Of a DNA stretch of 64,000 bases, positions 1,562 to 58,566 are shown in pieces. The position numbers and the translations under genes are program-made. The notes below the pieces were generated by a model. The model had not been told where the DNA came from and did no database searches. It was given only the letters and a program-made list of their open reading frames with translations. Every line of letters begins with the position of its first letter. Within the stretch, counting starts at the first letter, position 1. Source of the stretch: Patescibacteria group bacterium (GTDB taxonomy: Bacteria; Patescibacteriota; Microgenomatia; UBA10105; UBA927); the NCBI GenBank assembly GCA_035510735.1, contig DATKGN010000003.1, forward strand, positions 14,208 through 78,207. The letters run 5' to 3'.

Positions 1562-3017
1562 ACGAGATTTGGTAAAGGCCGATTGCATCTTCATTGTAGG
1601 GCTTGTTAAATATAATAATAGGCGTGAGATACGGCTGTGTCTCCGGTGTAATTAATGATAGCCGCGTCGCTAAATAGAGAGAACCCTTTTCCGTTATGGG
1701 TTCTAATTTTCTAAAATCGTGAATGTTTGTCATGGTCGCAAATATGATGCGTACGTACGGTTTAAAGTAATAGTATGTTAAAAGATAATCGCTTGGGTTT
1801 CCCGGGGAATCGGCAACAGCTAAAAGGAGTATTTTATCGTGCGGCACATGCGTGTCGATCCATGACACGAGCTCCGGAATGCCATACCCCGACGTCCAGG
1901 AAATCGCATAGTTTTGCTCGTGGACTGCGTTGGGGAAAAGATGGAAATAACCTGCAGGATTTACTATAAAGAAAAGTCCCCAGATTGAGAATAGACAAAA
2001 CGCTACAACGGGTGCGAACTTCCATTTGACTCTGTTAAAAAATATTGCCGTCATGACGGCCAAGAGCGGCAGGATCCCTATCATGCCGATAATGTAGTAC
2101 CTGGCGAGAATATTTTTTCCAATGAATATCGTGATCGCGATCGGTATAAAAAGCCAGATCATGAAGAGCACCGTACGGTCTTTGAGTTTGGGAAATCGAA
2201 TAGGATATGCCAAAAATATAATGAGCGGATTGAGGTAAAGTAAAAGGACGACCGGTGTCACGAGGAAATTCCGAAACCATACTGCAACGGGAAACTGAAA
2301 GAGCTCCTTTGCCGTGAACACAAAAAAGTCCGGTTCATGCAGAATGTTGGAAAAATTAGGTTGTAAAACCAGTGGGAGTATTATAAGCGCAGGGCCGAGG
2401 CACCACATCGCAATTCCAATAGTCACTTGAGTCGTACTAATATCGCCACGTAGCCTTTTCCATAAAAGTCCGAGCGTCGCAAGGAGAACGATAAGGAAAG
2501 CAGTCGTTTTTATCCAGAGGGCAATCCCGAGGAACACGGCGATAACTGGAATCTGCACCGGAATCTTCTTCTTCCATGGCTGGAGTATTAACCAGAGCGT
2601 GTAACAACTGACGGCAAAGAGAAGTCCGTCCATGAGTGCGAGGGTTTGGGTCAGGATAAAAAGGGGGCTTACGGCAAGCAATGCTAATGCGATATGTCGA
2701 ACCCGTTCGGGATATGAACGCTTCATAACATCGCTGAGAATAAAAAATACCGGAATGTTGACGAGAAATACCATAAGTCTTGCTCCGTATAACGGGTGAT
2801 GAAATATGAATGATCCGATCCCGAAGAGCCACATGGCAAGCGGTTGTCGGCTTACAAATGTGAGCGATGCCCATCGGAAATTTGGGTTATAGATCATGAG
2901 CTGCCCCCAGCGGATATAGAGTGACTCATCGGTAAACGGCGGGAAGGTGAAGAGAAAGTACAGACGATACGCAATAAATACGATGAATAATAAGACAAGC
3001 GTATATGATTTCTTCAT
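1545..3017 (-). CDS. Polytopic membrane glycosyltransferase, family GT39 (ArnT/PMT-like)
   Basis: 490 aa with more than 10 predicted transmembrane helices and GT39-like N-terminal loops. Its 3' end overlaps the convergent pilin gene by 17 bp. Confidence 0.55.
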   Translation of the reverse strand: MKKSYTLVLLFIVFIAYRLYFLFTFPPFTDESLYIRWGQLMIYNPNFRWASLTFVSRQPLAMWLFGIGSFIFHHPLYGARLMVFLVNIPVFFILSDVMKRSYPERVRHIALALLAVSPLFILTQTLALMDGLLFAVSCYTLWLILQPWKKKIPVQIPVIAVFLGIALWIKTTAFLIVLLATLGLLWKRLRGDISTTQVTIGIAMWCLGPALIILPLVLQPNFSNILHEPDFFVFTAKELFQFPVAVWFRNFLVTPVVLLLYLNPLIIFLAYPIRFPKLKDRTVLFMIWLFIPIAITIFIGKNILARYYIIGMIGILPLLAVMTAIFFNRVKWKFAPVVAFCLFSIWGLFFIVNPAGYFHLFPNAVHEQNYAISWTSGYGIPELVSWIDTHVPHDKILLLAVADSPGNPSDYLLTYYYFKPYVRIIFATMTNIHDFRKLEPITEKGSLYLATRLSLITPETQPYLTPIIIFNKPYNEDAIGLYQISFTASH

Positions 3018-3074
3018 GGTTTTCCTAAGAATATCACATTATATCAACATGCACGTGCTATAATCCGACGTACT

Positions 3075-3395
3075 ATGGTGGAGACATTAGATGCTAACGA
3101 ACAACCCGGGTTAACATTCATTGATTTTATTCAAGCGTGTGTTGACGGGGAGATGTGGAGTAAAACGTTAACGTATGATCAGTGGAAGAGAGAAAAGTTT
3201 GCAGAGACACTTTTACCCAAATACAACACCTTCGTTCTGAACGATCTCGAAGCGGCAAACGGTGATATAACCAAACTTCACGGTGGGAATTTTTATGACT
3301 GGATGGCTGAAGTCAAAGGCTTGGCATTAACTCCCGATGAAGAAGAAATGCGTTCGCATAAAGCACCTTTTGATCAAGCAGGTCAGGAGTTGTGA
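3075..3395 (+). CDS. Hypothetical protein
   Basis: 106 aa ORF, acidic, with no recognisable motif. Confidence 0.4.
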   Translation: MVETLDANEQPGLTFIDFIQACVDGEMWSKTLTYDQWKREKFAETLLPKYNTFVLNDLEAANGDITKLHGGNFYDWMAEVKGLALTPDEEEMRSHKAPFDQAGQEL

Positions 3396-4190
3396 CTATC
3401 CTATTCGATTTTGAATAAATCGGTACGTAAGATAGCTCGTGATGAGCGACACGGAAAATGCTGCGGCGGTTCCCACATATAGACCGAGTGATGGATACAA
3501 TAACTCAACCGCCAGCGCGTAAATGACCACATTCAACCCCCCGCTAATCATGAGCACTTTCATAATGGCGCTGGAAAAATCTTTTCCATGACTTAGACGT
3601 GTGATGATCATGGTTGATAACATAATAGCCGGGAATGATGCGAAAACACCTCCTAAAATAGGCCCTCCGAGCCTTGACGCAACGACAGCTCCCGCGATTA
3701 TCGACCCGCTAAGACACGCTCTAAATAGGATCTGCCCGAATGAGTAGGTCATTTTACGGCTGCCCTGGGAGCGGACGTCCGTACGCTTTCCGACAACGAA
3801 AATTGACGAAGCGTAGAGTACACCGAAAAGGATTAATGAGAGCCCAAGATTACTCAATTCAGACAGAACAACGAAAAATGAAAGAATAAACCAGATAACG
3901 AGAGGAATTGCAATGGAAGTAACAAATGAACGCTTAGATAAGAGGATATATACAGCACTAAACAGTGCATCTACGCCTAAAACAACCGGAATTGCGACGA
4001 CGGACTTTACCGCGAATGCGGGTGATTGCGTGAGTCCGATGAAAAACAGAGAAAGGACTGTTGTTGAGGGGATTCCTGTAATCACCCCTCCGATTTTCGA
4101 ACCATATTTTTCAGCGAGAATCGTTGCAGTCGTTATCCAAGTGGCACCAACAATAAAAGACAACATGAGGCGAACATAAAAAATATCCAT
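3396..4190 (-). CDS. Hypothetical integral membrane protein
   Basis: 264 aa, mostly hydrophobic with multiple transmembrane segments. It looks like two similar halves. Confidence 0.5.
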   Translation of the reverse strand: MDIFYVRLMLSFIVGATWITTATILAEKYGSKIGGVITGIPSTTVLSLFFIGLTQSPAFAVKSVVAIPVVLGVDALFSAVYILLSKRSFVTSIAIPLVIWFILSFFVVLSELSNLGLSLILFGVLYASSIFVVGKRTDVRSQGSRKMTYSFGQILFRACLSGSIIAGAVVASRLGGPILGGVFASFPAIMLSTMIITRLSHGKDFSSAIMKVLMISGGLNVVIYALAVELLYPSLGLYVGTAAAFSVSLITSYLTYRFIQNRIG

Positions 4191-5382: not shown

Positions 5383-6600
5383 CTACACCGTTTTATGCTT
5401 CTTTCGAAGAAACGGTGATTCAATAAGCGTATACGAAGCAATTGCTGTAATTATCGTAATACTAAGCACTACAAAAAACCGACTAAAAGACGGTGTGCTG
5501 GAGTTTACAAATCCTGGTTTCAAATACAGAAGATCAAAGAAAACATAATGGTACAGATACAAACCATACGAGATAAACCCAATACCATAGAAAAAGGTTC
5601 TGGGGTGGATAAGAAGCTTGACAATACGGGAGACAGAATACTGTATTCTCCTGTACGTAAACACAACACTCCTGGAAATGATGTACCATCCGATTAAAAT
5701 GCAAAGTGAAGGCGGCAGAATAAACATACGATTTATAACATCCTTCGACCATGGGATAAACATAGCAAAGTGAATGTTATAGTTTATCCAAAGGTACAAA
5801 CTTATTAGCAGAATAACGTAACCTGCGTTTGGAATCCGCTTTTTAAGAGCTATTACGTCTGCTTTACGTTCACATATGATGTAGCTTAAAAACATCCCAA
5901 AAAGGAAATAATCGATCATCCCCCATACAGTCACGTAGACATTGAGCCGGAACATGTCAAAGCTAGCGACAAGACCCAGCGTCAACAACAGATACCGCAC
6001 GGCACAACCAAAACACAATATATACATCCCAACTACCAGCGGGTGAATTTTATGTACTATACGGGAGAGTGCTGCAAAAAGAAGCGGCGCAATGAGGTAA
6101 AATTGCATCTCGGTTGAAAGTATTGCTAAAAGTTGTTGAATGGGTAACGTGAGGTAGTCAAAATTAGCGGTAAAGGTAAAAAAACGCACGATGTAGTGTA
6201 GAGAAACAGCCGTCTGGCGATAAAAAATGAATATACAGGCCAACATACATACATAATATGCAGGAGCAATCCGAAGCCATCGATTAATATAATATGAGCG
6301 TAGTGATTTTATCGATAATGTATATTTTTTAGAAAAAAATCCGTATCCCACACTAAAACCGGATATAAGATAGAAGATGGGTACAGCAATCCCTCCGTCG
6401 GGGGCGACAATAAAGGAGAGATCGATTCCGTGAATCATGATCCAGCCGTTTATACGTTGGAGATGATCCCAAATAACAACAAGACATGCCAGCCCGCGTA
6501 GTCCCAAGACGGGGTCCAGACGCTCGGAATAGAAAATATATGATCGGATAGTACGCAAACAAGTTCTAATAATATTTGATTTTAACATACCATACATCAT
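5383..6600 (-). CDS. Acyltransferase family 3 (OafA/YrhL-like) membrane protein
   Basis: 405 aa with 10 or more transmembrane helices. The N-terminal LGLRGLACLVVIWDH motif is typical of acyltransferase-3. Confidence 0.6.
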   Translation of the reverse strand: MMYGMLKSNIIRTCLRTIRSYIFYSERLDPVLGLRGLACLVVIWDHLQRINGWIMIHGIDLSFIVAPDGGIAVPIFYLISGFSVGYGFFSKKYTLSIKSLRSYYINRWLRIAPAYYVCMLACIFIFYRQTAVSLHYIVRFFTFTANFDYLTLPIQQLLAILSTEMQFYLIAPLLFAALSRIVHKIHPLVVGMYILCFGCAVRYLLLTLGLVASFDMFRLNVYVTVWGMIDYFLFGMFLSYIICERKADVIALKKRIPNAGYVILLISLYLWINYNIHFAMFIPWSKDVINRMFILPPSLCILIGWYIISRSVVFTYRRIQYSVSRIVKLLIHPRTFFYGIGFISYGLYLYHYVFFDLLYLKPGFVNSSTPSFSRFFVVLSITIITAIASYTLIESPFLRKKHKTV

Positions 6601-6752
6601 TTCATAAACGTATTACACAGGACTCCGGTGCTACCCAATTTCCGGTAGATAGTCATTGATTACGAGGCTATTTTTAACCAAATTTTCGTTCGAAGTTGGT
6701 GAAGATAACAAATTATTTGTATAATCGTCGAGAGGCCCTACCTCGTCAAACT

Positions 6753-6797
6753 GCGCGCGGGAGCGCGCTGGAACCATTGGCGGCGCTTCGCGCCGCC
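6753..6797. other. Two perfect GC-rich stem-loops immediately upstream of the first array repeat
   Basis: The first is GCGCGC-ggga-GCGCGC at 6753-6768. The second is GGCGGCGC-ttc-GCGCCGCC at 6779-6797. Both sit in an AT-rich context. Confidence 0.5.
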
Positions 6798-6818
6798 CCG
6801 ACAAGCCGGAATTTGGTG

Positions 6819-6906
6819 CCCCTAGGAGACCATATACGAACCTGGTTTGGTTCAAATCAACAGCAAGCGGAGATATTGAAGGTAGTATATAAGTACTTAG
6901 CTATTT
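6819..6906 (+). repeat. Array repeat copy 1 (variant CCCCTAGGAGACC...)
   Basis: This copy starts with cccctaggagaccatatacgaacctggttt and ends with tatataagtacttagctatttag. It was aligned by eye to the other five copies. Confidence 0.75.
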
Positions 6907-7020
6907 AGGTGCCTCCAAATTACAGAATAAGTTTATTCATGCTCTTTGGATTTGACAGCTCACCGATTGCGACGTACTATCGGACCAAAATAAGGTATCG
7001 AGGTATATTTCACGAAATAT

Positions 7021-7503
7021 ATGGTCAATCTGGAAAACGATAGCGCTGCCCAAGAGGGTTCAGTGACCTCAGAGCCGCTACACCAGCTTTCTAATGAGGC
7101 AACACAACTTATTGATCTGGCGATGAGCAAGGTGAGAAAAGGGTCGATAGGCACAGATGGGAGCCAAACGGTTTTTCTTAGGCATGGGCGCCATCTCTAT
7201 AGAATTACTGACGAACAGGTAGAAGTGGAAAAGGTAGGACCAATTGTCACAGCTGTTCATTCCAAAGGATCGTTACGTTCTGGATTACATGTGGTGATAA
7301 TTGCTGACGAACCAGGCGGTTATTTTTTTAGCGTGGATCTACCTCGAAGTAGTAAAGAGAATTTCGATGAACAGGAGCTTCATCAACTCGGAGAAAAATT
7401 ATATCCCCATAGTACGGTTCATCTCACCGCAGCGCAGATAAAAGAAACTAAAAGAACAACAAAGGCAAATTGGGAAAGAGTGCTCCGATCCCCTTGGTAT
7501 TAG
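7021..7503 (+). CDS. Hypothetical protein (array gene 1)
   Basis: 160 aa ORF, followed by repeat copy 2. Confidence 0.45.
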   Translation: MVNLENDSAAQEGSVTSEPLHQLSNEATQLIDLAMSKVRKGSIGTDGSQTVFLRHGRHLYRITDEQVEVEKVGPIVTAVHSKGSLRSGLHVVIIADEPGGYFFSVDLPRSSKENFDEQELHQLGEKLYPHSTVHLTAAQIKETKRTTKANWERVLRSPWY

Positions 7504-7555
7504 CATTGGTGATCTGTGCGATAAAAGCTTTGCTTTTTGAAGCTAATTCAAGTAA

Positions 7556-7645
7556 CCCCTACGAGACCATATACGAACCTGGTTGAGGGAAAATCCTAGA
7601 GATGGTGAGTTGTTACAAGTGTCATATAGGTTTTTAGCTTTTTAA
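7556..7645 (+). repeat. Array repeat copy 2
   Basis: cccctacgagaccatatacgaacctggtt, then atataggtttttagctttttaa at the 3' end. Confidence 0.75.
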
Positions 7646-7826
7646 CAAATATTTTCTCGTTGGAACCAGCTTCTAGCCTCAATAAGAACATGGAAAGCAC
7701 TATTTGAACCTAGCCTCAACCCAACATGGTGTATAACTACCAATTAGGATTAGAATTATGACTATTTTTTAAAATATGCTTAAATAATATTATGGTTGGA
7801 TCTAAAATGCGAAGGATATAGAATAT

Positions 7827-8273
7827 ATGGTAATGAAAAACATTGTGTTCGCTGTAATTCTTAGTTTAATATACTTTCTTCCTGAGTTATTAACGTTGCA
7901 GCTAGGAAGTGTCATCACTGCGTTTACAAACCCTGCAATATTAGCTCCTCAAGCTGTCACGCAAATATATACGGAAGCCACATTTTTTCTAATTTCTATA
8001 GTCTTAATATTGGTAAATATATATCTTGCGAAAAGCAAGAAAGAAATTGCTCGCTATATGACGTATATTTTTGCTGCTCCACTCGTTGTAATGAGTCTTA
8101 TCGGGATTTACTTAGTCATTACGTTGATGCAGTTATTGTTGCAAAATAGACTCAGTGAAGGAATACTTACCTTTATGATGTTGATTTCATTCGACTTTTT
8201 TGGCCTTTTGGGAAGCTATGTGTATTTCTTTTTGATTCACCACAAAGTAAATAATGAACTAAAAAGAAAGTAA
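7827..8273 (+). CDS. Hypothetical membrane protein (array gene 2)
   Basis: 148 aa with about four transmembrane helices. A TATAGAAT -10-like box lies 3 nt upstream of the ATG, which suggests a leaderless transcript. Confidence 0.5.
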   Translation: MVMKNIVFAVILSLIYFLPELLTLQLGSVITAFTNPAILAPQAVTQIYTEATFFLISIVLILVNIYLAKSKKEIARYMTYIFAAPLVVMSLIGIYLVITLMQLLLQNRLSEGILTFMMLISFDFFGLLGSYVYFFLIHHKVNNELKRK

Positions 8274-8300
8274 GACCGCGCCAAATTGAGGCTGAACGAC

Positions 8301-8390
8301 CCCCTACGAGACCATATACGAACCTGGTTTGCTGAAAATAGACAAGAAGCGGAGATTTTGAGGGTGGTGTATAGATTATTGGTTATATAA
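8301..8390 (+). repeat. Array repeat copy 3
   Basis: cccctacgagaccatatacgaacctggtttgctgaaaat, then gtgtatagattattggttatataaa at the 3' end. Confidence 0.75.
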
Positions 8391-8443
8391 AATACCCCAA
8401 ATTTTACTTTGAGTGCTATAATTAGCCTGTCAATATAACCCAT

Positions 8444-9154
8444 ATGCTAAAACCGGAAGATTTTGAAAGAATGTTACGTAATCGACCTCAACAAGTAGGC
8501 GTGGAGAGGACTGAGCTTGAGTCTTATAGTAAACAACAAGAAGTTACGTACAATCAAAATGTTTTGTCAAAACAATTACAAGAGGCACAGGCAAAGGCGG
8601 ATTTGTTGAAATGCCAGACGGATTTAATTAAAAAATTTTATCAGGAAGCAGGAATCCAACAACGCATAATAACAATAGCATCATTAATTTCAGGAGGAAA
8701 AATCATTACAGATCGGTCACTTGATGATTCAAATATAACTTTGAATATTCCTTATCACTCGTTTACGGGTCGAATGATTATTCATGACCCATCTATGGAT
8801 AAGTCATACTCTTCATTCGGCACTATGCAAAGTGGCTCAAGTTCTTTACGTGAGGAAGGACAAAAGTTAAGCGCCCCAACTACCTTACATGATAGAATCT
8901 ATGTGAATATTGACTGCTCTATTCAACCGAATCCACTTCGTTTATACTTTAAAGTATGGCACATGCAGTGGCAACAAGAGAAAATGACTAACACAGGAGC
9001 AATTTTTCATCGTACTGGGTGGGTTGAACATGGAATCGGAGGTAGGGATTGGGTTTTTTCGGAAAACGAATGGCTTGGACCAGATGGATGTCTTGTTGAC
9101 GCAGCTTTTACTGACGCTTATGACAGTTATTTAGCTATAACTGGGCAAATTTGA
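8444..9154 (+). CDS. Hypothetical protein (array gene 3)
   Basis: 236 aa ORF. An extended -10 box TGCTATAAT lies at 8414-8422. Confidence 0.5.
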   Translation: MLKPEDFERMLRNRPQQVGVERTELESYSKQQEVTYNQNVLSKQLQEAQAKADLLKCQTDLIKKFYQEAGIQQRIITIASLISGGKIITDRSLDDSNITLNIPYHSFTGRMIIHDPSMDKSYSSFGTMQSGSSSLREEGQKLSAPTTLHDRIYVNIDCSIQPNPLRLYFKVWHMQWQQEKMTNTGAIFHRTGWVEHGIGGRDWVFSENEWLGPDGCLVDAAFTDAYDSYLAITGQI

Positions 9155-9176
9155 TTCCCTATTTAGCCTCAAGTAT

Positions 9177-9265
9177 CCCCTACGAGACCATATACGAACC
9201 TGGATGAGCCTCAATAGATCAGAAGGGGAGTTGTTGAGTGCCTCGTATAGATTGTTAGCACTTTA
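9177..9265 (+). repeat. Array repeat copy 4
   Basis: cccctacgagaccatatacgaacctggatgag, then cgtatagattgttagcactttag at the 3' end. Confidence 0.75.
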
Positions 9266-9428
9266 GCAACTTTTTCACAATTTTACACCGTTTAGGCTAC
9301 TACATAAGTTTAATTGTAACTAGAATTACCGTGTTAGGGTCTTCAGCTTGATAATATTGGGAACATGTATAGAAACGAGTTATGGTCTGTAATTTGAATG
9401 TCATATAGACTTATAGTATAATTAACTT

Positions 9429-10106
9429 ATGCAGAATAAAGAAATAAACGAATTTGATAAATCTGATAGGTTGTATGTTGCGGTACCAGAGAGATTCCAT
9501 ACACCAAAAATAGGACAAAAGGCCGTTGCCAGTCTTGAACTTATACCTCTAGCGACGTCTCAGGGAGATTTTGACGCTTTTTGTTATGGATTCTATAGTG
9601 ATGAAGCTGGCGATTTGGCAAGGCAGGCTGTTTTTCAAATGATAGCGCAGCTTATTGGAGAATTGGAATACGCTAAGACGAAAGGCATAAACAATTCATT
9701 AAGTACTCAAATGGCGCCATCGTTATTAGAACACTTTTCTAAACCGTTTGAAGCCGTGTCAATTGAAACATTACTGAATGGCTCTATTAATATTGTAAAT
9801 CCAAGAATGAGAACAAGCAAAGAGATCATGACATATAAGGATGGTAAATTAATAAACTATATGCCTATCATAAAACCTCCAATAGGACTTCCTGGGCTTG
9901 GCGGTGGGAATTACCAGGCAAGGACATTGCAACCTGAAGTATATAACTTAGGATTAATGTCAGTATGTACTACAAGAAGAGACAGTCATATGATTATTGA
10001 CAATCTTTTTGGAGCTCTTAGTTTGTTTATCGCTCAACCAGGATCAGTATTAAATCAGATGTCTGCGGACATTCGAAGAATTCAGGTAGCAAGAGCTTTT
10101 GAATGA
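9429..10106 (+). CDS. Hypothetical protein (array gene 4)
   Basis: 225 aa ORF. The -10 box TAGTATAAT at 9414-9422 ends 6 nt before the ATG, which suggests a leaderless transcript. Confidence 0.5.
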   Translation: MQNKEINEFDKSDRLYVAVPERFHTPKIGQKAVASLELIPLATSQGDFDAFCYGFYSDEAGDLARQAVFQMIAQLIGELEYAKTKGINNSLSTQMAPSLLEHFSKPFEAVSIETLLNGSINIVNPRMRTSKEIMTYKDGKLINYMPIIKPPIGLPGLGGGNYQARTLQPEVYNLGLMSVCTTRRDSHMIIDNLFGALSLFIAQPGSVLNQMSADIRRIQVARAFE

Positions 10107-10212
10107 GTAGAACGCTACTTTTGACTTCCCTAGGGTTCCTCGCAGGGTCATGTTTCAGCTACTGAACAGGCTGATACAAAGCGCCAAATGCAATATATCG
10201 GTTATGCAAGTA

Positions 10213-10308
10213 CCCCTAGGGGACCATATACGAACCTGGTTTAGGAAAAACCAACAAGATGTTGTGATGCTGCAGTCAATATACAGCTGGTTGGTTATTT
10301 AAGTCCCA
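10213..10308 (+). repeat. Array repeat copy 5 (variant CCCCTAGGGGACC...)
   Basis: cccctaggggaccatatacgaacctggtttagg, then atatacagctggttggttatttaag at the 3' end. Confidence 0.7.
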
Positions 10309-10338
10309 TGTGGGAAAAAGCTTAAATAGCAATCATAT

Positions 10339-11034
10339 TTGAGCTTAAATGATATAATGCTGTTGTATGGTTACGCTAACAGGGCGTATTGCCGCTCTAA
10401 GAGTACAAAGGAAAAGATAAAATCGAGTAAAACTATGGGATTAAACGAAAAACTTCGATTATTACAAGAGCACGATGGGGATATTCAAAAATATTCCTCA
10501 ATCGTAGACATTTTGAAAAGCCCGGAATTACAACATCTTGCAGATGAAGGGAAAATTACCGTTGCGATGGTGCGCCCTCATGCGAGTGATAGTAAGCTTG
10601 GGGGAACGGATGTAGATGCAACCGCAAAAATTATACAGGAAATTAAATCTCGACAGCAGATCCTGTTTGGTTTTTCATGCGTCTTCACCAAAGAGATGTG
10701 CCTCGATTTTTATCAAGGCAGTCCCGTAGAAAATCAGAGCAGGATACCTCCAATCCGCACCTCAAACGCAAAAAACCGTTGGGAGGAATTTATGGATCTT
10801 CTCACTTCGGCTCCCTCGACAGTCCTCATTTTGTATTCCCCTAATGGTGATGCCGTCAAACGGTGGCGCGATCAGATAGGTGTTCGGTATAATTCCGAAA
10901 GCGATCCTACTAAAACTATTCGTGGCAAATTTGGTTTGCCTGACAACCATAATAATCTAGTTCATGGAAGCGATAGCACTAAAGCAGTTAAACGAGAAAT
11001 CAACTTTTTTTTACACTATGGCGGCATTTCATGA
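10339..11034 (+). CDS. Divergent nucleoside-diphosphate-kinase-like protein (array gene 5a)
   Basis: NDK-family motifs are present: ITVAMVRPHA (compare the canonical IKPDG region), TIRGKFG, and NLVHGSDS carrying the catalytic His. The N-terminal extension is unrelated to NDK. Confidence 0.5.
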   Translation: MSLNDIMLLYGYANRAYCRSKSTKEKIKSSKTMGLNEKLRLLQEHDGDIQKYSSIVDILKSPELQHLADEGKITVAMVRPHASDSKLGGTDVDATAKIIQEIKSRQQILFGFSCVFTKEMCLDFYQGSPVENQSRIPPIRTSNAKNRWEEFMDLLTSAPSTVLILYSPNGDAVKRWRDQIGVRYNSESDPTKTIRGKFGLPDNHNNLVHGSDSTKAVKREINFFLHYGGIS

Positions 11035-11584
11035 ATTTTTAGCAGAAAACGAACTCTTTCGCGTTCTTGGTGACCATGGATTCGATATCGGTCCCGAGCC
11101 TCACCATCAAAGTCAACCACGTCCACTACTTATACGTGGAGATAACCACCTAAATTTCATAATGGGTAAAGAGTCCAATTTTTCTCCTCATTCCGGACAA
11201 ATGGGCAGTTGGGGAGTTTTTTTAGCAGACACAATCTCGGCAGTTATGTTTGGGGACGTCTATTATGTCTTTCATAGTTCCAGGTTGCTTTCAGCTACTG
11301 GTGAAGCTTCATGGTTAAACCCTCAATCGACAAAATGGAACGATCTTTTTGATTCTATTGCTGCAAAAAAACGATTAAATACCCGTACATTAAGCGGAGG
11401 TCTTGAGGCGGAAACCGAAATATATAAACATTATCCAATCTATGAGCCAAACCTTGGCATTGCTACGATCCCGACTTCCGTCTCAATAGCGATGGCAGAC
11501 AAAATAATGATAAAAAAACAAACATATGAAACTGTGCAAAATCGTATTCCCTCCTACCTTCTACCAAAAGTGGTAATATTTTAG
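11018..11584 (+). CDS. Hypothetical protein (array gene 5b); its start overlaps the stop of the NDK-like gene
   Basis: The ORF 10964..11584 was trimmed to the ATG at 11018, which overlaps the upstream stop by 17 bp. No recognisable motif. Confidence 0.4.
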   Translation: MAAFHEFLAENELFRVLGDHGFDIGPEPHHQSQPRPLLIRGDNHLNFIMGKESNFSPHSGQMGSWGVFLADTISAVMFGDVYYVFHSSRLLSATGEASWLNPQSTKWNDLFDSIAAKKRLNTRTLSGGLEAETEIYKHYPIYEPNLGIATIPTSVSIAMADKIMIKKQTYETVQNRIPSYLLPKVVIF

Positions 11585-11726
11585 CTATGGAGATAGCATT
11601 TATTATTGAGTGCAACCTCGATATTGATCCTTTAAAACGTAAGGAAATTCGAGTTCAACGTAAAACGTCTTGTACAAAATTTGGCGATATCGTTTATAGT
11701 CTTTTTTCAAAAATTAGCTTCGTGTA

Positions 11727-11820
11727 CCCCTACGAGACCATATACGAACCTGGTTTGCTTCAAATACACAGGAAGCGAACTTGCTACATGCGGTGTATAG
11801 ATGTTTAGCTATATAAAATA
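11727..11820 (+). repeat. Array repeat copy 6 (last)
   Basis: cccctacgagaccatatacgaacctggtttgcttcaaat, then gtgtatagatgtttagctatataaaata at the 3' end. Confidence 0.75.
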
Positions 11821-11838: not shown

Positions 11839-12414
11839 TTATCTTTCCACTTTCCAATCAAATTTTGATGTACCGTTGGCCTCAATAAGTACGAATGGTT
11901 TAGGTGTACCTTGATCTTGTACTACATGAAGTGTGAACAAAGTATTAATTGACTTTGTTTGTAATCCAGGGTAACTTCGTGCTCCCGTGTTTTCTTCCCA
12001 CTCTCTTTCAAAGTCAAGGCTAGAATTACTTAACGATAAACCGGAATTGTGAAATGAGGGTTCAATTTCTTCTTCGTATGTTCTTCTAATTGCGGCATCC
12101 ATAGATTCATTCGCATGCCGTTTTTCCGCATACGTCCCAGGGAGATCTCTGTGTTTACCCTTTTTATTTTCAGCCTCAAAACATTTAAAATGCACACCCC
12201 GATTATGATAAGAAACATCAATGAAGATAGGCCACGTAAGTCTTAGCAACCCATGTTCCATTCTTACAAGTCCGCTATCACCTTCCAATATTTCTTGATA
12301 CAATTCAGTGGGACTTTTTGCTCCGTTCGCACCCCAGGGCCCAATATCAACATAACTCCGTAAATAATCTCTGAATTGATCTAAAGATTTAAAGCCCAAA
12401 AAGTCTTCTGGCAT
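11839..12414 (-). CDS. Hypothetical protein
   Basis: 191 aa ORF in the opposite orientation, between the array and tRNA-Glu. Confidence 0.45.
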   Translation of the reverse strand: MPEDFLGFKSLDQFRDYLRSYVDIGPWGANGAKSPTELYQEILEGDSGLVRMEHGLLRLTWPIFIDVSYHNRGVHFKCFEAENKKGKHRDLPGTYAEKRHANESMDAAIRRTYEEEIEPSFHNSGLSLSNSSLDFEREWEENTGARSYPGLQTKSINTLFTLHVVQDQGTPKPFVLIEANGTSKFDWKVER

Positions 12415-12467
12415 GGGGTAATTGTACTATAGGTTTAAGTAGACTTCAACTTCGAACTTTCATCGAG

Positions 12468-12541
12468 TACCCCCTGCCGGATTCGAACCGGCGGTTCACG
12501 GGCTGAAAACCCGTTGTCCTAGGCCGCTAGACGAAGGGGGC
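12468..12541 (-). tRNA. tRNA-Glu (anticodon UUC)
   Basis: Hand-folded cloverleaf: acceptor GCCCCCT/AGGGGGT, D-arm GTCTAGCGGCCTAGGAC, anticodon loop TTTTCAG, T-arm GCCGG-TTCGAAT-CCGGC. Confidence 0.85.
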
Positions 12542-51402: not shown

Positions 51403-51540
51403 TTTATAAATGATAGGTCGACCGTTCAAACTAGCAAGACTTCAACAATCTTAATGGCAAGCACTGAACTTCTCGAAGAACTGCCAAGCTAGGATTCCAT
51501 TCCTCGCGTCGCACAGATCCCCTCCTGCGAGGGGCCTGAG

Positions 51541-51611
51541 CTGGGAGACTAGGATTCGGACCTAGATACCAAGATCCAAAGTCTTGTGTCCTACCCTTGG
51601 ACGATCTCCCA
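51541..51611 (-). tRNA. tRNA-Gln (anticodon UUG) with an unusual T-loop UCCGAAU
   Basis: Hand fold: acceptor TGGGAGA/TCTCCCA with discriminator G, D-arm GTCC-AAGGGTA-GGAC, anticodon arm CAAGA-CTTTGGA-TCTTG, T-arm CTAGG-TCCGAAT-CCTAG. Confidence 0.65.
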
Positions 51612-51740
51612 GCTCAAACCCCAGCTCTGGCGGGCGGGCAAAGTCTGGCGTGTTACTCCACCCAAGCTGGATTAACTGACGGTAATCCTCTCATTCAGCC
51701 AACTGATCGCAAACTGTCAGTTGAACGTTACACCACCCGG

Positions 51741-51792
51741 CAATAAAAAAGCTATCAGACTTCAGTCACCAACGATCAGTTATCTGATAGCT
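51741..51792 (-). terminator. Hairpin plus U-tract terminator downstream of tRNA-Gly(GCC) on the minus strand
   Basis: The inverted repeat AGCTATCAGA (51750-51759) pairs with TCTGATAGCT (51783-51792). On the minus strand the hairpin is followed by TTTTTTATT. Confidence 0.45.
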
Positions 51793-51819
51793 GAAAGCTA
51801 ATAGCTGATAGCTTCTTAG

Positions 51820-51891
51820 AGCGGGCGACGAGAATTGGACTCGCTACCTTCTCCTTGGCAAGGAGACATTCTACCGGTGAACTACGCCCGC
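51820..51891 (-). tRNA. tRNA-Gly (anticodon GCC) with T-loop UCCAAUU
   Basis: Acceptor GCGGGCG/CGCCCGC with discriminator U, anticodon arm TCTCC-TTGCCAA-GGAGA, T-arm GCGAG-TCCAATT-CTCGT. Confidence 0.65.
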
Positions 51892-52458
51892 AAAATAATT
51901 TTCTACGAAAATTTTCTGCGTAAACGCTGATATTATACCAGTGTTTACACCGAAAAAATCGAGAGATTTTATTCGGTGCCGAGACTAGGAATTGCACCCA
52001 GATAACGTGTTTTTCAGACACGCACCTTGACTACCTCGGTCATCTCGGCTAACTTGACTATCCCTCGAAAACTCGGGACTTCTGAAACCTCAGCCTCGGT
52101 CATCTCGGTCCATCAACGCGCTTCTTTTCCTCAGGGCAAGCAAAATGCTCAAATCCTAATTCGACTAAACCTAATGGCAATTATACGGTAAATGGTGGCT
52201 TTTTGTCATCAGGCTTCATGCGCAGTGACAAAGATTGAATATAGTTCCGCCTTTTGAGTTTTTCCATCAACTTATTCCTGTTGTTTGGAATTACTCAAAT
52301 AATAAATTCATACAGGGAATTATTGTTAAAATAGAAGTGTTATGCCCATGGATCAAATCTCAAAAATAATTATTCTTATCACATTCATTCAAGGTTTAAA
52401 TATACATATATACGGTAGCCGTCGCACATAAATTTGTTGTATACTGAATTTTTCTGCC

Positions 52459-52689
52459 ATGAAACATTCAACAACGAGCCGATCTGTCGTAAAAACCATC
52501 GTTTATCGCTTTCTTATCATTTGTTCTGACGGTATTATCATTTACGCCTTAACACATAAAGTAGTACTAACCCTCAGCGTTATTGGTTTGTCGAATATTG
52601 CAAGTACGCTTCTGTATTTCTTGCATGAGCGCGCATGGTCAAGGATTACCTGGGGGCTCTCCAAAAAGAGATTAAACGTAACAAAGTGA
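52459..52689 (+). CDS. DUF2061-like small membrane protein
   Basis: 76 aa with two transmembrane helices; the C-terminal LLYFLHERAWSRITWG matches the DUF2061 signature. Confidence 0.5.
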   Translation: MKHSTTSRSVVKTIVYRFLIICSDGIIIYALTHKVVLTLSVIGLSNIASTLLYFLHERAWSRITWGLSKKRLNVTK

Positions 52690-52694
52690 TTTTG

Positions 52695-52767
52695 TGGACG
52701 ATGAGGGACTCGGACCCCCGACATCTTCAGTGTAAATGAAGCGCTCTACCAGCTGAGCTAATCGTCC
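52695..52767 (-). tRNA. tRNA-Val (anticodon UAC) with T-loop UCCGAGU
   Basis: Acceptor GGACGAT/ATCGTCC with discriminator A, D-arm GCTC-AGCTGGTA-GAGC, anticodon loop TTTACAC, T-arm GGGGG-TCCGAGT-CCCTC. Confidence 0.65.
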
Positions 52768-52864
52768 TTTCGATATCGCTATATCTCTGAATATGCGATA
52801 ATGAGCACACTCTATTGTATTCGAAATTGTTATTTTGAACAATATTTATTACAATAGGCAGCAC

Positions 52865-52946
52865 GCGGACGTGGCGGAATTGGTATACGCGCAGTCTTGA
52901 GGAGGCTGTGCCGCAAGGCATGGAGGTTCAAGTCCTCTCGTCCGCA
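52865..52946 (+). tRNA. tRNA-Leu (anticodon GAG)
   Basis: Long variable arm TGCCGCAAGGCA, anticodon loop TTGAGGA, T-arm GGAGG-TTCAAGT-CCTCT, acceptor GCGGACG/CGTCCGC. Confidence 0.8.
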
Positions 52947-53034
52947 CAAGAGGAGATGGCACCATTGTCAAAGGTGCAAATTGATTGATATAACGGGCTA
53001 ATTTGATGGTTCAAACGAGAAGAAATACCCAAAT

Positions 53035-54153
53035 ATGCTAGAACGATTGGTTTGGGCGGAAATTAACGTCAGAAACTTTCTCTACAACATCTCCTGTGTG
53101 AAAAAGATTGTAGGCTCCCATGTAAAAATAATGGCCGTCGTCAAAGCAAATGCATACGGACATGGTGCCGTCGAGCTAGCAAAAGTGGCGGAAAAATTTG
53201 GCGTTGATTATTTTGGGATTGTTTGCTTGTATGAAGCGAGACAACTTCGCGAAGCGGGAATACATACACCGATTCTCGTCCTCAATTACATTGATGAAGA
53301 AAGCGTGGAAGCGTGCGTTGATTTAAATGTTACGCTCAATGTCATGGACGAAAAGCTCCTTTCGCGACTAGACAAGGTTGCGCGAAAGAAAGGTAAGCGA
53401 GTCCCCATCCATGTCAAAGTAGACACTGGGATGCACCGATTAGGGCTGCAACCCGAGGAAGCACTACGCTATATTCCAAAAATAGAACAGTACAAAAATA
53501 TCAAATTAGAGGGCGTGTTTACTCATTTTGCAACGTCAGATGAAAAGAACCTGTCTTTTACCTATTCACAGCTTAAGACGTTTAACACTCTTCTATCAGC
53601 CTTAGCAAAAAACGGTGTGCGTGTACCGATCGTTCACGCCGCGAACAGCGCAGCGACTCTTCGCGTGCCGAGTGCTCATTATGATTTAGTCCGCCCCGGC
53701 GTTATTTTATACGGACTGGCGCCATCTGGTGATTTTCCTCTGCCATTTATACCAAAACCTGTCATGGCTCTCAAAACAAAAATTGTTCAACTTCGTCAAA
53801 TCGCTAAAGGCGAAACGGTAGGTTACGGTCGAACATTTACTGCAGTCAAACCAACGCGCGTCGCTTCCCTCCCGGTGGGCTATGCCGATGGCTTTCGCCG
53901 TGCACCGAATAACTGGGGAAGTGTTTTAGTAAACGGTCAATTTGCACCGTTAATCGGCAGAGTTTCAATGGATCAATCATCAATTGATGTCACAGCCATT
54001 CGCGCCGCTCGCGTAGGGGATGAAGTCGTATTAATCGGGATACAAGGAAAACACCTATTGACGGCGGAACTGGTTGCCAAAACGCTCGGTACCATTAATT
54101 ATGAAGTTACCAGCGCAATTGCTTCCCGTGTCTCGCGCGTGTACTTTTTGTGA
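53035..54153 (+). CDS. alr: Alanine racemase
   Basis: PLP-Lys motif AVVKANAYGHGAVE; a C-terminal beta domain. Confidence 0.9.
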   Translation: MLERLVWAEINVRNFLYNISCVKKIVGSHVKIMAVVKANAYGHGAVELAKVAEKFGVDYFGIVCLYEARQLREAGIHTPILVLNYIDEESVEACVDLNVTLNVMDEKLLSRLDKVARKKGKRVPIHVKVDTGMHRLGLQPEEALRYIPKIEQYKNIKLEGVFTHFATSDEKNLSFTYSQLKTFNTLLSALAKNGVRVPIVHAANSAATLRVPSAHYDLVRPGVILYGLAPSGDFPLPFIPKPVMALKTKIVQLRQIAKGETVGYGRTFTAVKPTRVASLPVGYADGFRRAPNNWGSVLVNGQFAPLIGRVSMDQSSIDVTAIRAARVGDEVVLIGIQGKHLLTAELVAKTLGTINYEVTSAIASRVSRVYFL

Positions 54154-54292
54154 ACGTTACTATGCGTTTGTGCCCGGAGGGAGACTCGTCCCAGAAGTAT
54201 CTTTCCGCCTTTGGCGGATTAGAACTTCGGGATCCCGCATTCTACGCCCAGTTTACTGGGCAAGAATTGCGGGAAACTCCAAAACGACTCTG

Positions 54293-54378
54293 TGCCCAGA
54301 AGAGGATTCGAACCTCCAAGGGATTTTACTCCCACTAGCTCCTGAAGCTAGCGCGTCTACCAATTTCGCCATCCGGGC
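54293..54378 (-). tRNA. tRNA-Leu (anticodon CAG)
   Basis: Acceptor GCCCGGA/TCTGGGC, anticodon arm CTAGC-TTCAGGA-GCTAG, long variable arm, T-arm GGAGG-TTCGAAT-CCTCT. Confidence 0.8.
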
Positions 54379-54431
54379 ATGAGGCTATTATACCATTACC
54401 GCTTTGCAGAACGAGATGTTAACTATAGGTC

Positions 54432-55097
54432 TTGTTTCACAAAACCCTGCGAGGTAGAATAGCCAGTACCAATAAGCCGTTATCAATTTCTCCTATGGGT
54501 AGAACAAAAATAAATACGATTCTTCAACCGGATGAACAATCGTGCGGCCCGGTTTCCTTAAAACATGCACTTGAAATTTTGGGCAAACGAAAATCGATTT
54601 CAACACTCTCAAAACTCTGTAAAACTTCACGGAACGGGACAGCGACGAAAAATATGATTAAAGCGCTCAACGGTTTGGGGTATTCAGTACTCGCCGTCGA
54701 GCGGGCAACACTTCGCCATCTTATCTCTTCGCTCCGCTATCAACCAAATAAGCCAAGGGCCGTCATTGTCGATTATCTATACAATCTGGAAAATACCCAT
54801 GATGAACCGTCATGGGAATCCGGCCACTGGGCAACTGTGTCGTCGTTTAGTGCCAGTAACAGTAAGATTGTGTTATTTGACGGATATTCAGGGACTAAGA
54901 AATCCTATCACTGGCAGGATTTCCGTAAACGTTGGGTAGATTACGACGTCATGAAAAAGAAAGTGTCACCACGGTCAAAAAAATTCAAATCCTTCCGCAG
55001 GTGGAGAAAGCAACTCTTGCTTGTTATATCTTCGGATCCAAAACATCTACCGAGGTTCCGCTATTCCTCATCGGCGATATATCCTGGTGTTAATTAA
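54432..55097 (+). CDS. Papain-like C39-family-type cysteine peptidase domain protein
   Basis: QPDEQSCGPVSLKHAL carries the Cys; GHWATVSSF...IVLFDGYSG carries the His. The N-terminus is basic. The real start may be the internal MGRTK. Confidence 0.45.
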   Translation: MFHKTLRGRIASTNKPLSISPMGRTKINTILQPDEQSCGPVSLKHALEILGKRKSISTLSKLCKTSRNGTATKNMIKALNGLGYSVLAVERATLRHLISSLRYQPNKPRAVIVDYLYNLENTHDEPSWESGHWATVSSFSASNSKIVLFDGYSGTKKSYHWQDFRKRWVDYDVMKKKVSPRSKKFKSFRRWRKQLLLVISSDPKHLPRFRYSSSAIYPGVN

Positions 55098-56118
55098 TGG
55101 AGTTTTGGACAATCTGAAGAACGAAATCCTCAAGTGTCATGCCGTGTGCCCGTATTGACGCAGTCATGGCATCCCGCGGGTCCGGATCAAAACCGGCGTT
55201 TGCGTTGCCCTCGAGGAAAAACCATGAGTGGATGTCCGGATTATACCGGAGATCAAACCGGCCGTAATCACGCATCCCGAGGGCGTAGAATGCCCGTATG
55301 GCGTCACGTTTTATCTGAACGTCGATATCCGTATTTAAACGCTTAGGAGGGGCCTTAAAATAACAACTTTTATAGACTGGCAGGTGTTTACTCCATTTTT
55401 CATCAAACCCGTAAATGTTCCATTTATTTTTCACGTGACCCTTGAATGCAATTTCTGCAATAGGCAATGCGACCGTTTTATTGGGAGTCTCCAATATGGT
55501 TACCTGCAGTTCCTTACCGGGAATAAATTCCTCGGCGATGAGCGTTTGTTTGTGTTGCTTCCGCAGCCGAGTGACGATTGATTTAAACTGACGGTAGTTT
55601 TGTGCGATGGATCCGTTCGTTATACCGATACTGCAATGTTCATATGCGGGCTTAATAATAACAGGATATTTACTAGGCAGTAAGGATTTTCTAATTCGGT
55701 CTCTTAATTTAATAATTGAATATCGCGGGGTCGGTAATAAATTTTTTTCAAATAGTTTTTTTGATTTAATTTTGTTATTTGATGCTTTAATGCCGTCAAG
55801 ATCAGTACCTGAATGCGGGATGTGAAGACGTTTGAGGATTTTTGCAATCTGAATTTCCATCGCTTTGCTGTCCACGAGGTTAAACACAAAATTGGCTTTT
55901 AATTTCTTGAGTTCTGACAAGTCTTCCGGGCTCACTTTTATAATCTGAACGTTATATCCTTCCTGCAAAAACAATTTACGCATGTAGTGCACTATTTCAT
56001 CCGTCTGGTTGTCTACAAGCGTATGTTCTTCACTGAAGTATTTTGCGGCAATATTCTTTGGTACGTAATGATATAAAAGCGCAATGGTTTTTTTTCTTTT
56101 GTGGGCAATTTTTTTCAT
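55090..56118 (-). CDS. ATP-grasp ligase of the D-alanine--D-alanine ligase family (divergent paralogue)
   Basis: Ddl-like architecture; an ATP-grasp core with EEFIPGKELQVTIL; a C-terminal YGRFDLRY...FFLEGNANAGF segment. Confidence 0.6.
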   Translation of the reverse strand: MKKIAHKRKKTIALLYHYVPKNIAAKYFSEEHTLVDNQTDEIVHYMRKLFLQEGYNVQIIKVSPEDLSELKKLKANFVFNLVDSKAMEIQIAKILKRLHIPHSGTDLDGIKASNNKIKSKKLFEKNLLPTPRYSIIKLRDRIRKSLLPSKYPVIIKPAYEHCSIGITNGSIAQNYRQFKSIVTRLRKQHKQTLIAEEFIPGKELQVTILETPNKTVALPIAEIAFKGHVKNKWNIYGFDEKWSKHLPVYKSCYFKAPPKRLNTDIDVQIKRDAIRAFYALGMRDYGRFDLRYNPDIHSWFFLEGNANAGFDPDPRDAMTASIRAHGMTLEDFVLQIVQNSIN

Positions 56119-56192
56119 TGATATCTCATAAGAGAATTATTTCGGGTACATGTTCATTAATGATGATTTTGAAACATTTGTCAAGTATTCGA

Positions 56193-57230
56193 TTATAATT
56201 GCGTATGATATCGGACAAGTGCTTCCTTGAGAATACGCTCAATAATATCCGTGTAGGACATGGACAATGTCTTTGCAATGGTCCCGAAGGCATCCTGTTT
56301 TGATAGTGCAGGAAGTGGGTTAATCTCCAGAACATATGGTTTGTTATTTTTATCCACTCGAAAATCTATACGCCCGAAATCCCTGCTGCCCACCGCTGTA
56401 TATGTTTTTATCGCGAAGTCCCTAATCAAATCGGCAAGAGCCGGCCGCAGGTCTGCGGGACAGCAGTAGTGTACGTCACTTGAATAGACGTAACGGCCTA
56501 CATAAATTTTATCGTTCACCGGTTTATTTCTGATAAGGATTTCAACAATAGGGTAGGCTTGTATGGTGTCTCCGTTGCCGATAACTGCGACTGTGCACTC
56601 ACGTCCCTCAATAAACTCCTCAACAAGCGCAGGTTGATCGTACAGTGAGGTGATATGATTAATCTGATCATTTAACTCATTGAAATTCTTTACTTTTGAT
56701 TTTGCGGTCATTCCCTTTGATGATCCCTCCCATTGGGGCTTCACAATGAGTGGAAATGGTAAGTCCGGCATATCATCACGTTTCATCGGTTTTGTTGCAA
56801 CGAAAAATTTGGGAGTAGGGATACCATGAGCTGCGAGGATTTCTTTCGTGATAACTTTATCAAGTGTCAGACTCATGGTTAATGCGTCAGATCCGACATA
56901 CGGAATTCCGAAATACTCAAGAACGAGCGGTATTTGTGCTTCACGATTCCTTCCTTGTAAACCTTCTGCGGTGTTAAAAATGATGTTCACATGTTGCTTT
57001 ACTGCGTCCACATGTTTGAGAAGGTTGCTAAAGTTGCCTATGTCGTAAACGGTATAGCCGCAGCGCTCAAGACTTTTTTTAATCCCTCGGACGATGGTCA
57101 CATTATCGAATTCGCTGTATTTATCCGGAGGATCACCGGCCGTTAGCGTATAATCACTTGCAATATCGTACGTAAGTCCTACCGTTATTGAAGAACTTTT
57201 CGCTTTCGTTAGTTTCGTTTTCATATCCAT
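56193..57230 (-). CDS. ddl: D-alanine--D-alanine ligase
   Basis: Ddl motifs FPLIVKPQWEGSSKG, EEFIEGRECTVAVIG and GRIDFRVD...YVLEINPLP. Confidence 0.75.
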   Translation of the reverse strand: MDMKTKLTKAKSSSITVGLTYDIASDYTLTAGDPPDKYSEFDNVTIVRGIKKSLERCGYTVYDIGNFSNLLKHVDAVKQHVNIIFNTAEGLQGRNREAQIPLVLEYFGIPYVGSDALTMSLTLDKVITKEILAAHGIPTPKFFVATKPMKRDDMPDLPFPLIVKPQWEGSSKGMTAKSKVKNFNELNDQINHITSLYDQPALVEEFIEGRECTVAVIGNGDTIQAYPIVEILIRNKPVNDKIYVGRYVYSSDVHYCCPADLRPALADLIRDFAIKTYTAVGSRDFGRIDFRVDKNNKPYVLEINPLPALSKQDAFGTIAKTLSMSYTDIIERILKEALVRYHTQL

Positions 57231-57418
57231 AGTTCACCATATCATATGCACGATATACCGTACAGATGATACAATATGCATAGAGAATCTTGACCGGGGT
57301 GACGAAATGCTCAAGCCGACAGTTAACGATCCGTCGACTGACGGAGAGTCTTAGTGTTGCTTAGTCCCGCCAAGCGGGAGTATACGGTCTTACGATGATA
57401 AAATAGGTTGACAATAAA

Positions 57419-57503
57419 GCCGGGGTGGCGAAATGGTATACGCGCAGGACTTAAAATCCTGTGGTGATTAAACACCGTGTGGGTTCGAGTCCCACTCTCG
57501 GCA
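57419..57503 (+). tRNA. tRNA-Leu (anticodon UAA)
   Basis: Acceptor GCCGGGG/TCTCGGC, anticodon arm CAGGA-CTTAAAA-TCCTG, long variable arm GGTGATTAAACACC, T-arm GTGGG-TTCGAGT-CCCAC. Confidence 0.8.
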
Positions 57504-57504
57504 C

Positions 57505-58512: not shown

Positions 58513-58566
58513 TTTCTGCTACAATAAGTAGGCTCGGGTCGCCTCATAGGGGACCCACAGAAGAGG

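Follow-up and report, generated by a model that had tools for sequence, protein, structure and literature searches.

A 64-kb stretch of DNA from an uncultured Patescibacteria bacterium (the window) contains a block at approximately 6753-11820, extending toward a tRNA-Glu gene, in which small gene units are joined by six copies of a 90-nt repeat (r1-r6). The block looks like a cassette array with coding junction repeats and resembles a gene-collecting array, not an integron. Each repeat has two parts: a 27-nt core, CCCCTASGRGACCATATACGAACCTGG, that is invariant as DNA, and then a tail of 20 codons and a stop that is kept as protein. The explanation that we tentatively favour, at somewhat less than an even chance, is that the units were joined by serial recombination at the core and that a replacement 3' gene end came with each of them. 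It is preferred because a block of DNA identity is followed by a selected, diverged tail that is linked to the downstream DNA, because the chromosomal contexts of the copies are unrelated, because the guanine-plus-cytosine (GC) content is low, and because a breakpoint falls at the core. Among the origins offered in the initial annotation of this DNA, "the recombination sites of an undescribed cassette system" is the alternative that fits the evidence best.

Under the serial recombination model, the block would consist of six small gene units, acquired independently of one another and stacked, with the repeats as their joints. A unit would begin inside the 27-nt core. After the 20 codons and stop would come a promoter-like region of its own and then the cargo, one or two genes that may face either way. 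Recombination at the core would add or exchange units. It could be catalysed by a sequence-specific recombinase whose gene lies elsewhere, or could proceed as homologous recombination (RecA) on the 27-33 nt that are identical, once DNA has been taken up. The frame without a start codon would be a replacement gene end, such that an incoming unit would supply its own last 20 codons of a frame crossing the joint. Two elements of the model are inferred: the mechanism of recombination and the existence, at some place, of a gene body or expression site whose frame runs into the core.

A DNA-invariant core and a coding tail

The six same-strand direct repeats of the initial annotation were recovered at the expected starts (Table 1). 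Within the core, the 18-mer GACCATATACGAACCTGG matched exactly in 6 of 6 repeats compared with 0.06 matches expected by chance, and no further copy of the 18-mer or of the repeat was found in the 64 kb, either by exact search or by nhmmer using a model built from ten copies (the six of the window and four from other contigs, described below). Expressed as a degenerate pattern, the core is GAYCAYATHMGNACNTGG.

The centre of the repeat had been described as variable and its 3' end as semi-conserved. The similarity at the 3' end is real, but it represents the last codons and the stop of a frame that had been overlooked. One of the six possible frames is open in all six copies, with no insertions or deletions (indels) and with the stop in the same column. 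Among the 15 copy pairs of the six repeats, the core (codons 1-9) differs at codon 3 only, while 41% of positions differ in the tail (codons 10-29) and 71-73% in the flanks. Pairwise differences numbered 161 at the third codon position versus 105 and 106 at the other two, and replacements in the tail are conservative; for example, the invariant Leu20 is encoded as TTG, TTA, CTG or CTA. The peptide can be summarised as PL[RG]DHIRTW-F..N..E..LL..VY..L.I*, and its full consensus is PL[RG]DHIRTW[FLM]xxNxx[EDQ]xx[LIM]Lxx[VSI]Y[RKS]xL[AV][IFL]*.

All ten copies (r1-r6 together with those of contigs L016, L017 and L018, the last with copies a and b) hold the frame without indels. The stop occurs at the same codon in nine of the ten, as TAA, TAG or TGA, and L018b is one codon longer. 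Across the ten copies, the ratio of nonsynonymous to synonymous differences (pN/pS) was 0.51 in the repeat frame (with a pS of 0.72, near saturation) versus 0.95 and 1.11 in the control frames, showing that the tail is under purifying selection. A constant stop position with a changing stop codon, together with this substitution pattern, is the signature of a translated protein ending.

The beginning of the frame is of a different character. No conserved start codon or Shine-Dalgarno motif was found across the repeat copies, and in-frame stops occur shortly before some of them (TAA directly ahead of r2; TAG three codons ahead of r6). An ATG, GTG or TTG lies a few codons upstream in 6 of 10 copies, which is roughly the chance rate. 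A semi-conserved AAGTA precedes the core; as copies differ there by a 1-nt indel, it is a DNA motif, not coding sequence. An amphipathic helix was considered for the tail; the hydrophobic moment gave no support for it.

Copies on other contigs and the breakpoint at the core

Outside the window, four copies were found on three other metagenome contigs; an exact-core scan of 185,579 species genomes returned six matches, all out of frame and chance-like, from a collection that evidently does not hold the source genome. The contigs came from a core scan of Joint Genome Institute (JGI) metagenome contigs, in which three of six matches were genuine loci (L016, L017 and L018). The four independent loci were found by exact core match, so that conservation of the core between lineages is ascertained, not measured. 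One copy is present on L016 and two on L018, which is extended by contig L031; L017 carries a solo copy 60 nt downstream of a receiver-domain gene, with homology starting only at GACCAT.

Contigs L016 and L018 derive from the same metagenome and represent two strains of another lineage. Their identity is 96.2% from position 1 to position 367, where the shared sequence ends in ...GAACCTGG. Beyond the last core base they carry different tails and different genes, a 180-aa reverse ORF (open reading frame) in L016 and a 167-aa forward ORF in L018. Because the identity ends at the last core base, the core is the joint, and the tail goes with the cargo that follows it. This strain polymorphism, with its breakpoint exactly at the end of the core, supports the cassette-array architecture.

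The array of L031 consists, in order, of adh_short, a decayed repeat, a reverse-strand BrnT/CopG toxin-antitoxin (TA) pair, two successive units of repeat plus cargo, and an ABC transporter. The decayed repeat (GTACCCCTAGTGCAT...; GTACCCCTAGTGCATTTTATTTCGG) is located at 1189-1213, 35 nt after adh_short, and its frame is broken after 17 codons; evidently, old joints erode. Tails within one array are no closer to one another than tails from different genomes (i.e. relationships are star-like), and for this reason the arrays were not made by local duplication. The closest tail to r3 is that of L017, with 75% amino-acid identity; at the nucleotide level, the r5 and L016 tails are 65% identical and those of r4 and r5 47%. 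The chromosomal contexts are also unrelated: an acyltransferase gene and tRNA-Glu in the window, adh_short and an ABC transporter in L031, and the position after a receiver gene in L017.

Relatives of the L018 ABC transporter (1842-3680) at 76-77% identity have other neighbours. Beyond its relatives at 76-100%, the next homologues (∼70% identity) include Ktedonobacteraceae (Chloroflexota), which suggests either horizontal transfer or an uncertain taxonomic origin of the AT-rich L018 contig. The motif TATAGCTTCGTAAATAC, with similarity extending over ∼40 nt of flank, occurs in two unrelated contigs, in L017 (3824-3838) and upstream of L018 genes (1768-1782 and ∼12446-12489). It was considered as a "right-end element" of the cassette joint and rejected because it recurs elsewhere in L018; a promoter or regulatory motif specific to the lineage is more probable.

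Cargo genes and boundaries of the array

The block is AT-rich, as had been described, with a GC content of 35-43% versus 45-49% in the flanks on both sides, and it lies between an acyltransferase gene and tRNA-Glu, both of which were found in place (Table 1). The two perfect GC-rich hairpins reported at its upstream boundary are present as well, and no others of that kind exist in the window. Their stems are perfect and all-GC, the GGGA loop is of the GNRA type, and the pair, the only one of its sort in the 64 kb, is located between a TATAAT box (6721-6726) and r1. These hairpins could act as a 5' stabiliser or barrier element.

Table 1. Coordinates of repeats, cargo genes, short motifs and boundary features in the window.
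Feature	Position	Strand	Description
Acyltransferase-3 gene	5383..6600	-	Left flank; transcription directed away from array
Two all-GC hairpins	6753-6768, 6779-6797		GGGA and (C)TTCG(G) loops; left array edge
Repeat r1	6819..6908	+	Core 6819-6845, 20-codon tail, TAG; peptide PLGDHIRTWFGSNQQQAEILKVVYKYLAI*
Cargo 1	7021..7503	+	160-aa orphan ORF; promoter-like TTGACA-17-TACTAT at 6952-6980
Repeat r2	7556..7645	+	Core, tail, TAA; in-frame TAA immediately before; peptide PLRDHIRTWLRENPRDGELLQVSYRFLAF*
Cargo 2	7827..8273	+	148-aa multi-pass membrane ORF
Repeat r3	8301..8390	+	Core, tail, TAA; peptide PLRDHIRTWFAENRQEAEILRVVYRLLVI*
Cargo 3	8444..9154	+	236-aa ORF
Repeat r4	9177..9266	+	Core, tail, TAG; peptide PLRDHIRTWMSLNRSEGELLSASYRLLAL*
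Cargo 4	9429..10106	+	225-aa orphan ORF; TTGAAT-17-TATAAT ending 6 nt before ATG
Repeat r5	10213..10302	+	Core, tail, TAA; peptide PLGDHIRTWFRKNQQDVVMLQSIYSWLVI*
Cargo 5a	10435..11034	+	Divergent NDK-like protein, 199 aa
Cargo 5b	11018..11584	+	188-aa orphan partner ORF; 17-nt overlap with NDK-like gene
Repeat r6	11727..11816	+	Core, tail, TAA; peptide PLRDHIRTWFASNTQEANLLHAVYRCLAI*
Reverse ORF between r6 and tRNA-Glu	11839..12414	-	191-aa orphan
tRNA-Glu(UUC)	12467..12541	-	Right boundary; tRNA 3' end faces array (ARAGORN, Rfam)
TAGCCTCAA matches in array	7537-7545(-), 7674-7682, 7711-7719, 8286-8294(-), 9164-9172, 9206-9214, 9291-9299(-), 11877-11885, 12171-12179		9-mer, up to one mismatch

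The composition of the cargo agrees with the initial annotation: four ORFs without a family match, one membrane protein, and one NDK-like protein (Pfam E=4e-15) with an overlapping partner. The Pfam match spans only the C-terminal two thirds of cargo 5a, which forms one cargo unit with cargo 5b. Apart from the NDK-like protein, none of the cargo genes had a match in Pfam, PADLOC or PHROGs. The cargo genes are orphans confined to the 90% clusters of their own species, in which each protein stands alone or nearly alone; the proteins are identical to HUD19077 and HUD19079-HUD19083, with the exception of cargo 2, which only joins the 90% cluster of HUD19078. Cargo 3 has just ∼11 distant relatives among 1.84 billion representatives, and its AlphaFold model (predicted local distance difference test score, pLDDT, of 79) gave no fold match in PDB. 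The 191-aa reverse ORF beyond r6 is probably the cargo of the sixth unit, in reversed orientation, given that reversed cargo also follows the L016 copy and, in the form of the TA pair, the decayed copy of L031.

One distant homologue of cargo 3 is carried by contig L045 (Logan SRR22387758_171624), along with type IV secretion system (T4SS) pilins, a TraG-like ATPase and five TA pairs. Those pairs are separated by six copies of a different repeat of 27-30 nt, GTATCCCGCCGGATTTGGGGTTGCAAG (at 6778, 7010, 7553, 8949, 9729 and 10338), the reverse complement of which, TTGCAA-17 nt-TACAAT, looks like a repeated promoter on the gene strand. In the window, cargo 2 ends in a TAA that shares its frame with r3 (8271-8390), with nine sense codons between them. 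Read-through would extend the membrane protein by the conserved tail; no other cargo ORF is in phase with the repeat that follows it.

Promoter-like sites or -10 boxes are found just upstream of the first four cargo starts, consistent with the -10 boxes noted earlier close to the ATGs, and the transcript of cargo 4 may be leaderless given the proximity of its TATAAT to the ATG. As a class, promoter-like sites are not enriched, and between core and cargo ATG lie 143-271 nt. Matches to the 9-mer TAGCCTCAA (up to one mismatch) cluster in the array, which holds 9 of the 22 in the window and all 3 exact ones (whole-window expectation, 11). The 9-mer occurs in both orientations, with r2, r3 and r4 flanked by inverted pairs, and is also present twice in the left flank of L018; it takes part in no predicted fold. 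Farther along the window, a 12-kb region (51540-63830) contains eleven tRNA genes on the two strands (Gln, Gly, Phe, Val, Leu x3, Pro, Gly, Arg and His), with cell-wall genes among them, namely alanine racemase and two D-Ala-D-Ala ligase paralogues.

Alternative origins and comparison with known systems

Several results weigh against serial recombination at the core. A peptide profile of the repeat returned nothing at E<=10 from 5.8 billion protein clusters, although genuine copies score 60-72 bits with this profile, corresponding there to E ∼1e-8; thus no called protein, those of this metagenome-assembled genome included, ends with the tail. Searches of PDB and Pfam, tblastn against phages and plasmids, and a back-translated scan of IMG/VR likewise gave nothing meaningful for the repeat peptide. 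Upstream of the first copy at three loci (r1, L018a and L017), the frame is short and unrelated and no gene body enters the core. This lack of anything reading into the core at three loci is the main weakness of the favoured model. The initial annotation saw no integrase, and no recombinase, transposase or reverse transcriptase is encoded in the window or in the ∼9 kb to its left (-9 kb to +64 kb, ∼73 kb in all). The best dyad symmetry of the core was 7 of 11 positions versus a null mean of 6.9; since the sites of tyrosine and serine recombinases are usually symmetric, this argues weakly against a classical site of either kind. Array order was the same in every own-lineage contig recovered, from ∼10 assemblies, such that mobility was unseen there. 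Lastly, an 82%-identical relative of the L018 ABC transporter lacks the L031 array, but the gene upstream of it is non-orthologous (29% identity) and the locus is too diverged for a clean empty site.

The closest rival to serial recombination is a silent bank of C-terminal cassettes, from which start-less 3' modules would be moved by homologous recombination at the core, swapping tail plus partner gene into a distant expression site. The fragments are of the appropriate kind, as they lack a start codon, share a 5' stretch that is identical as DNA and have a downstream part that is variable yet selected; each is followed by a small unrelated ORF with its own promoter-like site, and tail and ORF are co-inherited. 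Furthermore, tpsC cassettes interspersed with immunity ORFs are documented (PMC3848433). However, the variable part comprises 20 residues, far below the size of a toxin domain, no full-length tail-bearing gene exists among the called proteins, and no candidate main gene lies beside the three arrays. The cargo can also take either orientation, and one cargo of L031 is a TA pair. A silent bank has the main weakness of the favoured model as well, and we rate it as rather unlikely.

Alternatively, the repeat may be a local intergenic element without any cassette mobility, encoding a tiny protein from a non-canonical start (e.g. an in-frame ATA in the core) or serving as a regulatory or binding site, with the difference between L016 and L018 being an ordinary homologous exchange between repeats. 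Selection on the tail at the protein level, in the face of an empty search for any larger protein containing it, would be accounted for in this way, and the ATG, GTG or TTG near six of the ten copies could supply a start; in addition, the Patescibacteria-like contig L045 shows that intergenic repeats between TA cassettes can be a repeated promoter. Yet neither start codon nor Shine-Dalgarno motif is conserved, the TAA directly before r2 closes the frame there, and the upstream starts occur at about the chance rate. A promoter scan found no sigma-70-like site at any repeat, and the spacing between core and ATG is variable (143-271 nt). The abrupt switch from 96% identity to unrelated sequence at the core edge and the star-like tails fit acquisition better, and we regard a purely local repeat as distinctly unlikely.

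It is very unlikely that the units are tandem islands targeting tRNA-Glu, in which case the core would have taken its left edge from the tRNA 3' end and the intact tRNA would be the seventh junction of six units. The array does adjoin the 3' end of tRNA-Glu in the expected orientation; TCRAGTACCCC(C)T is common to the tRNA 3' end plus trailer and to several repeats at their left edge, and a second shared stretch beyond it is CGAACC.GG. This similarity does not reach significance, though (p 0.06-0.4 per copy), and is no better than that to other tRNAs. Over the block, tRNA-Glu was the sole Rfam match at E<=10, and neither Rfam nor ARAGORN detected a tRNA-like element, tRNA or transfer-messenger RNA (tmRNA) in the repeats. 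No tRNA is present within contigs L016, L017 and L018, the L031 array is not beside tRNA-Glu, and the coding tail would be left unexplained.

Comparison with integrons, and with clusters of attC sites lacking an integrase (CALINs), was prominent in the initial annotation. What stands is the arrangement, i.e. oriented one- or two-gene units split by a conserved site, whereas the attC analogy failed every structural test run. A CALIN remnant, with species-specific attC sites recombined as folded single strands by a distant IntI, would account for oriented orphan cassettes of one or two genes, sites of ∼90 nt, a TA cassette in a related array and the lack of a nearby integrase. That the variable centre always folds into an imperfect hairpin, as had been stated, was not confirmed: single-stranded DNA folds gave z-scores of -1.5 to +1.0 on both strands relative to shuffled sequences, so that neither strand has a stable or conserved hairpin. 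Nor was pairing of the 5' and 3' ends confirmed; RNAalifold on the ten copies, in either orientation, produced just a 6-bp stem inside the invariant core with zero covarying pairs. Including 35 or 60 nt of flank yielded no enclosing stem and no better fold, r5 excepted. The boxes RYYYAAC/GTTRRRY are absent from both strands in 5 of 6 repeats, and r4 has a single GTTRRRY without a partner; no imperfect palindrome of the R''/L''/L'/R' kind was found. Primary sequence and protein frame are conserved, not structure, and the cassettes have promoter-like sites of their own. A CALIN remnant is thus highly improbable.

The same holds for a reading of the repeats as conventional terminators or insulators between genes, or as copies of a small-RNA gene: the repeats are intergenic and each follows a same-strand ORF, but none of the six has a hairpin with a T tract, terminator-like sites number 2 in the block versus 5.1 expected with none at the repeats, no Rfam match was found at E<=10, fold energies are no better than shuffled, and the 3-nt substitution period, conservative changes and fixed stop position are protein-like. 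Two further candidates were rejected. Against the variable and template repeats (VR/TR) of a diversity-generating retroelement, mismatches showed no A bias (A share 0.22-0.37, about the base composition) and no reverse transcriptase is present in the window. A remnant of a miniature inverted-repeat transposable element (MITE) or of an insertion sequence (IS) end was dismissed as the repeat unit has no inverted termini and the TAGCCTCAA 9-mers bracket some copies only.

To our knowledge, Patescibacteria (the candidate phyla radiation, CPR) have tiny genomes with few recognised mobile elements, their acquisition of accessory genes is poorly understood, and integration has hardly been described in them. 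The locus displays a compact, ordered stacking of foreign single-gene units, which IntegronFinder, Rfam, and island and repeat finders would not classify. With its two layers, the joint can be searched for precisely by means of the core together with the tail profile, and it raises the question of what reads into the core. Should a recombinase or expression site be found, the array would represent a new cassette system; if none is found, it would still be a clean example of repeated 3' gene ends from serial integration. The bolder proposal is an undescribed capture or exchange system of Patescibacteria, in which the site would lie within a translated C-terminal module, a unit would swap the last 20 residues of a protein that is encoded or assembled elsewhere while adding cargo, and a recombinase or pathway unrelated to integron integrases would act. 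We consider this possible, though on balance doubtful.

With integrons and CALINs, the array shares oriented and mostly orphan units of one or two genes, a site of ∼90 nt, TA cassettes and, as in CALINs, the lack of a nearby recombinase. It differs in that an attC site is an imperfect palindrome (R''/L''/L'/R', with extrahelical bases), whereas here an invariant 27 nt is followed by a coding tail and the units have their own promoter-like sites.

Integrative elements at gene 3' ends include phage 21 and e14 at icd and the streptococcal integrative and conjugative or mobilizable elements (ICE/IME) at rpsI, rpmG and fda, and tandem accretion with integrase-less cis-mobilizable elements (CIMEs) is known. 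The ssrA-specific islands of Dehalococcoides are likewise integrative elements at a gene 3' end (PMC3146451). The array has in common with all of these an identical att-like core followed by a diverged yet functional copy of a gene end, tandem direct repeats, and low-GC accessory cargo. Here, however, no target gene body precedes the first copy, no integrase is encoded in the units or in the ∼73 kb, the units measure only 0.7-1.5 kb, and the target "gene" was not found in the databases searched.

Orphan modules of cdiA-CT/cdiI and rhs-CT, and pilS copies, work as silent recombining cassettes. Meningococcal tpsC cassettes with intervening ORFs (tpsC/IORF arrays) are orphan toxin-immunity modules of this type (PMC3848433). 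Start-less, 5'-truncated fragments, a 5' stretch conserved as DNA for recombination, and a co-inherited small ORF are features that the array shares. It departs from them in its variable part, 20 residues here versus at least 100, in having no full-length gene adjacent or detected, and in cargo that can be reversed and includes a TA pair and an NDK-like enzyme.

Shufflons and tail-fibre switches, such as R64 with Rci and asymmetric sfx sites in pilV, or Mu with Gin and the S/U segments, use inverted sites and a dedicated recombinase. As proposed for the array, their recombination site lies within coding sequence and one C-terminal segment is replaced by another, in some cases along with an accessory gene. 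There, inversion takes place beside a constant 5' part; the sites of the array are all direct, and it has neither such a part nor a recombinase.

The array does not pass the tests that define integrons, known 3'-end integrative elements or orphan toxin modules. Its architecture, in which cassettes or islands are stacked and a recurring site connects them, is of a known kind; the joint is what is unusual, a DNA-invariant core fused to a start-less, selected coding tail.

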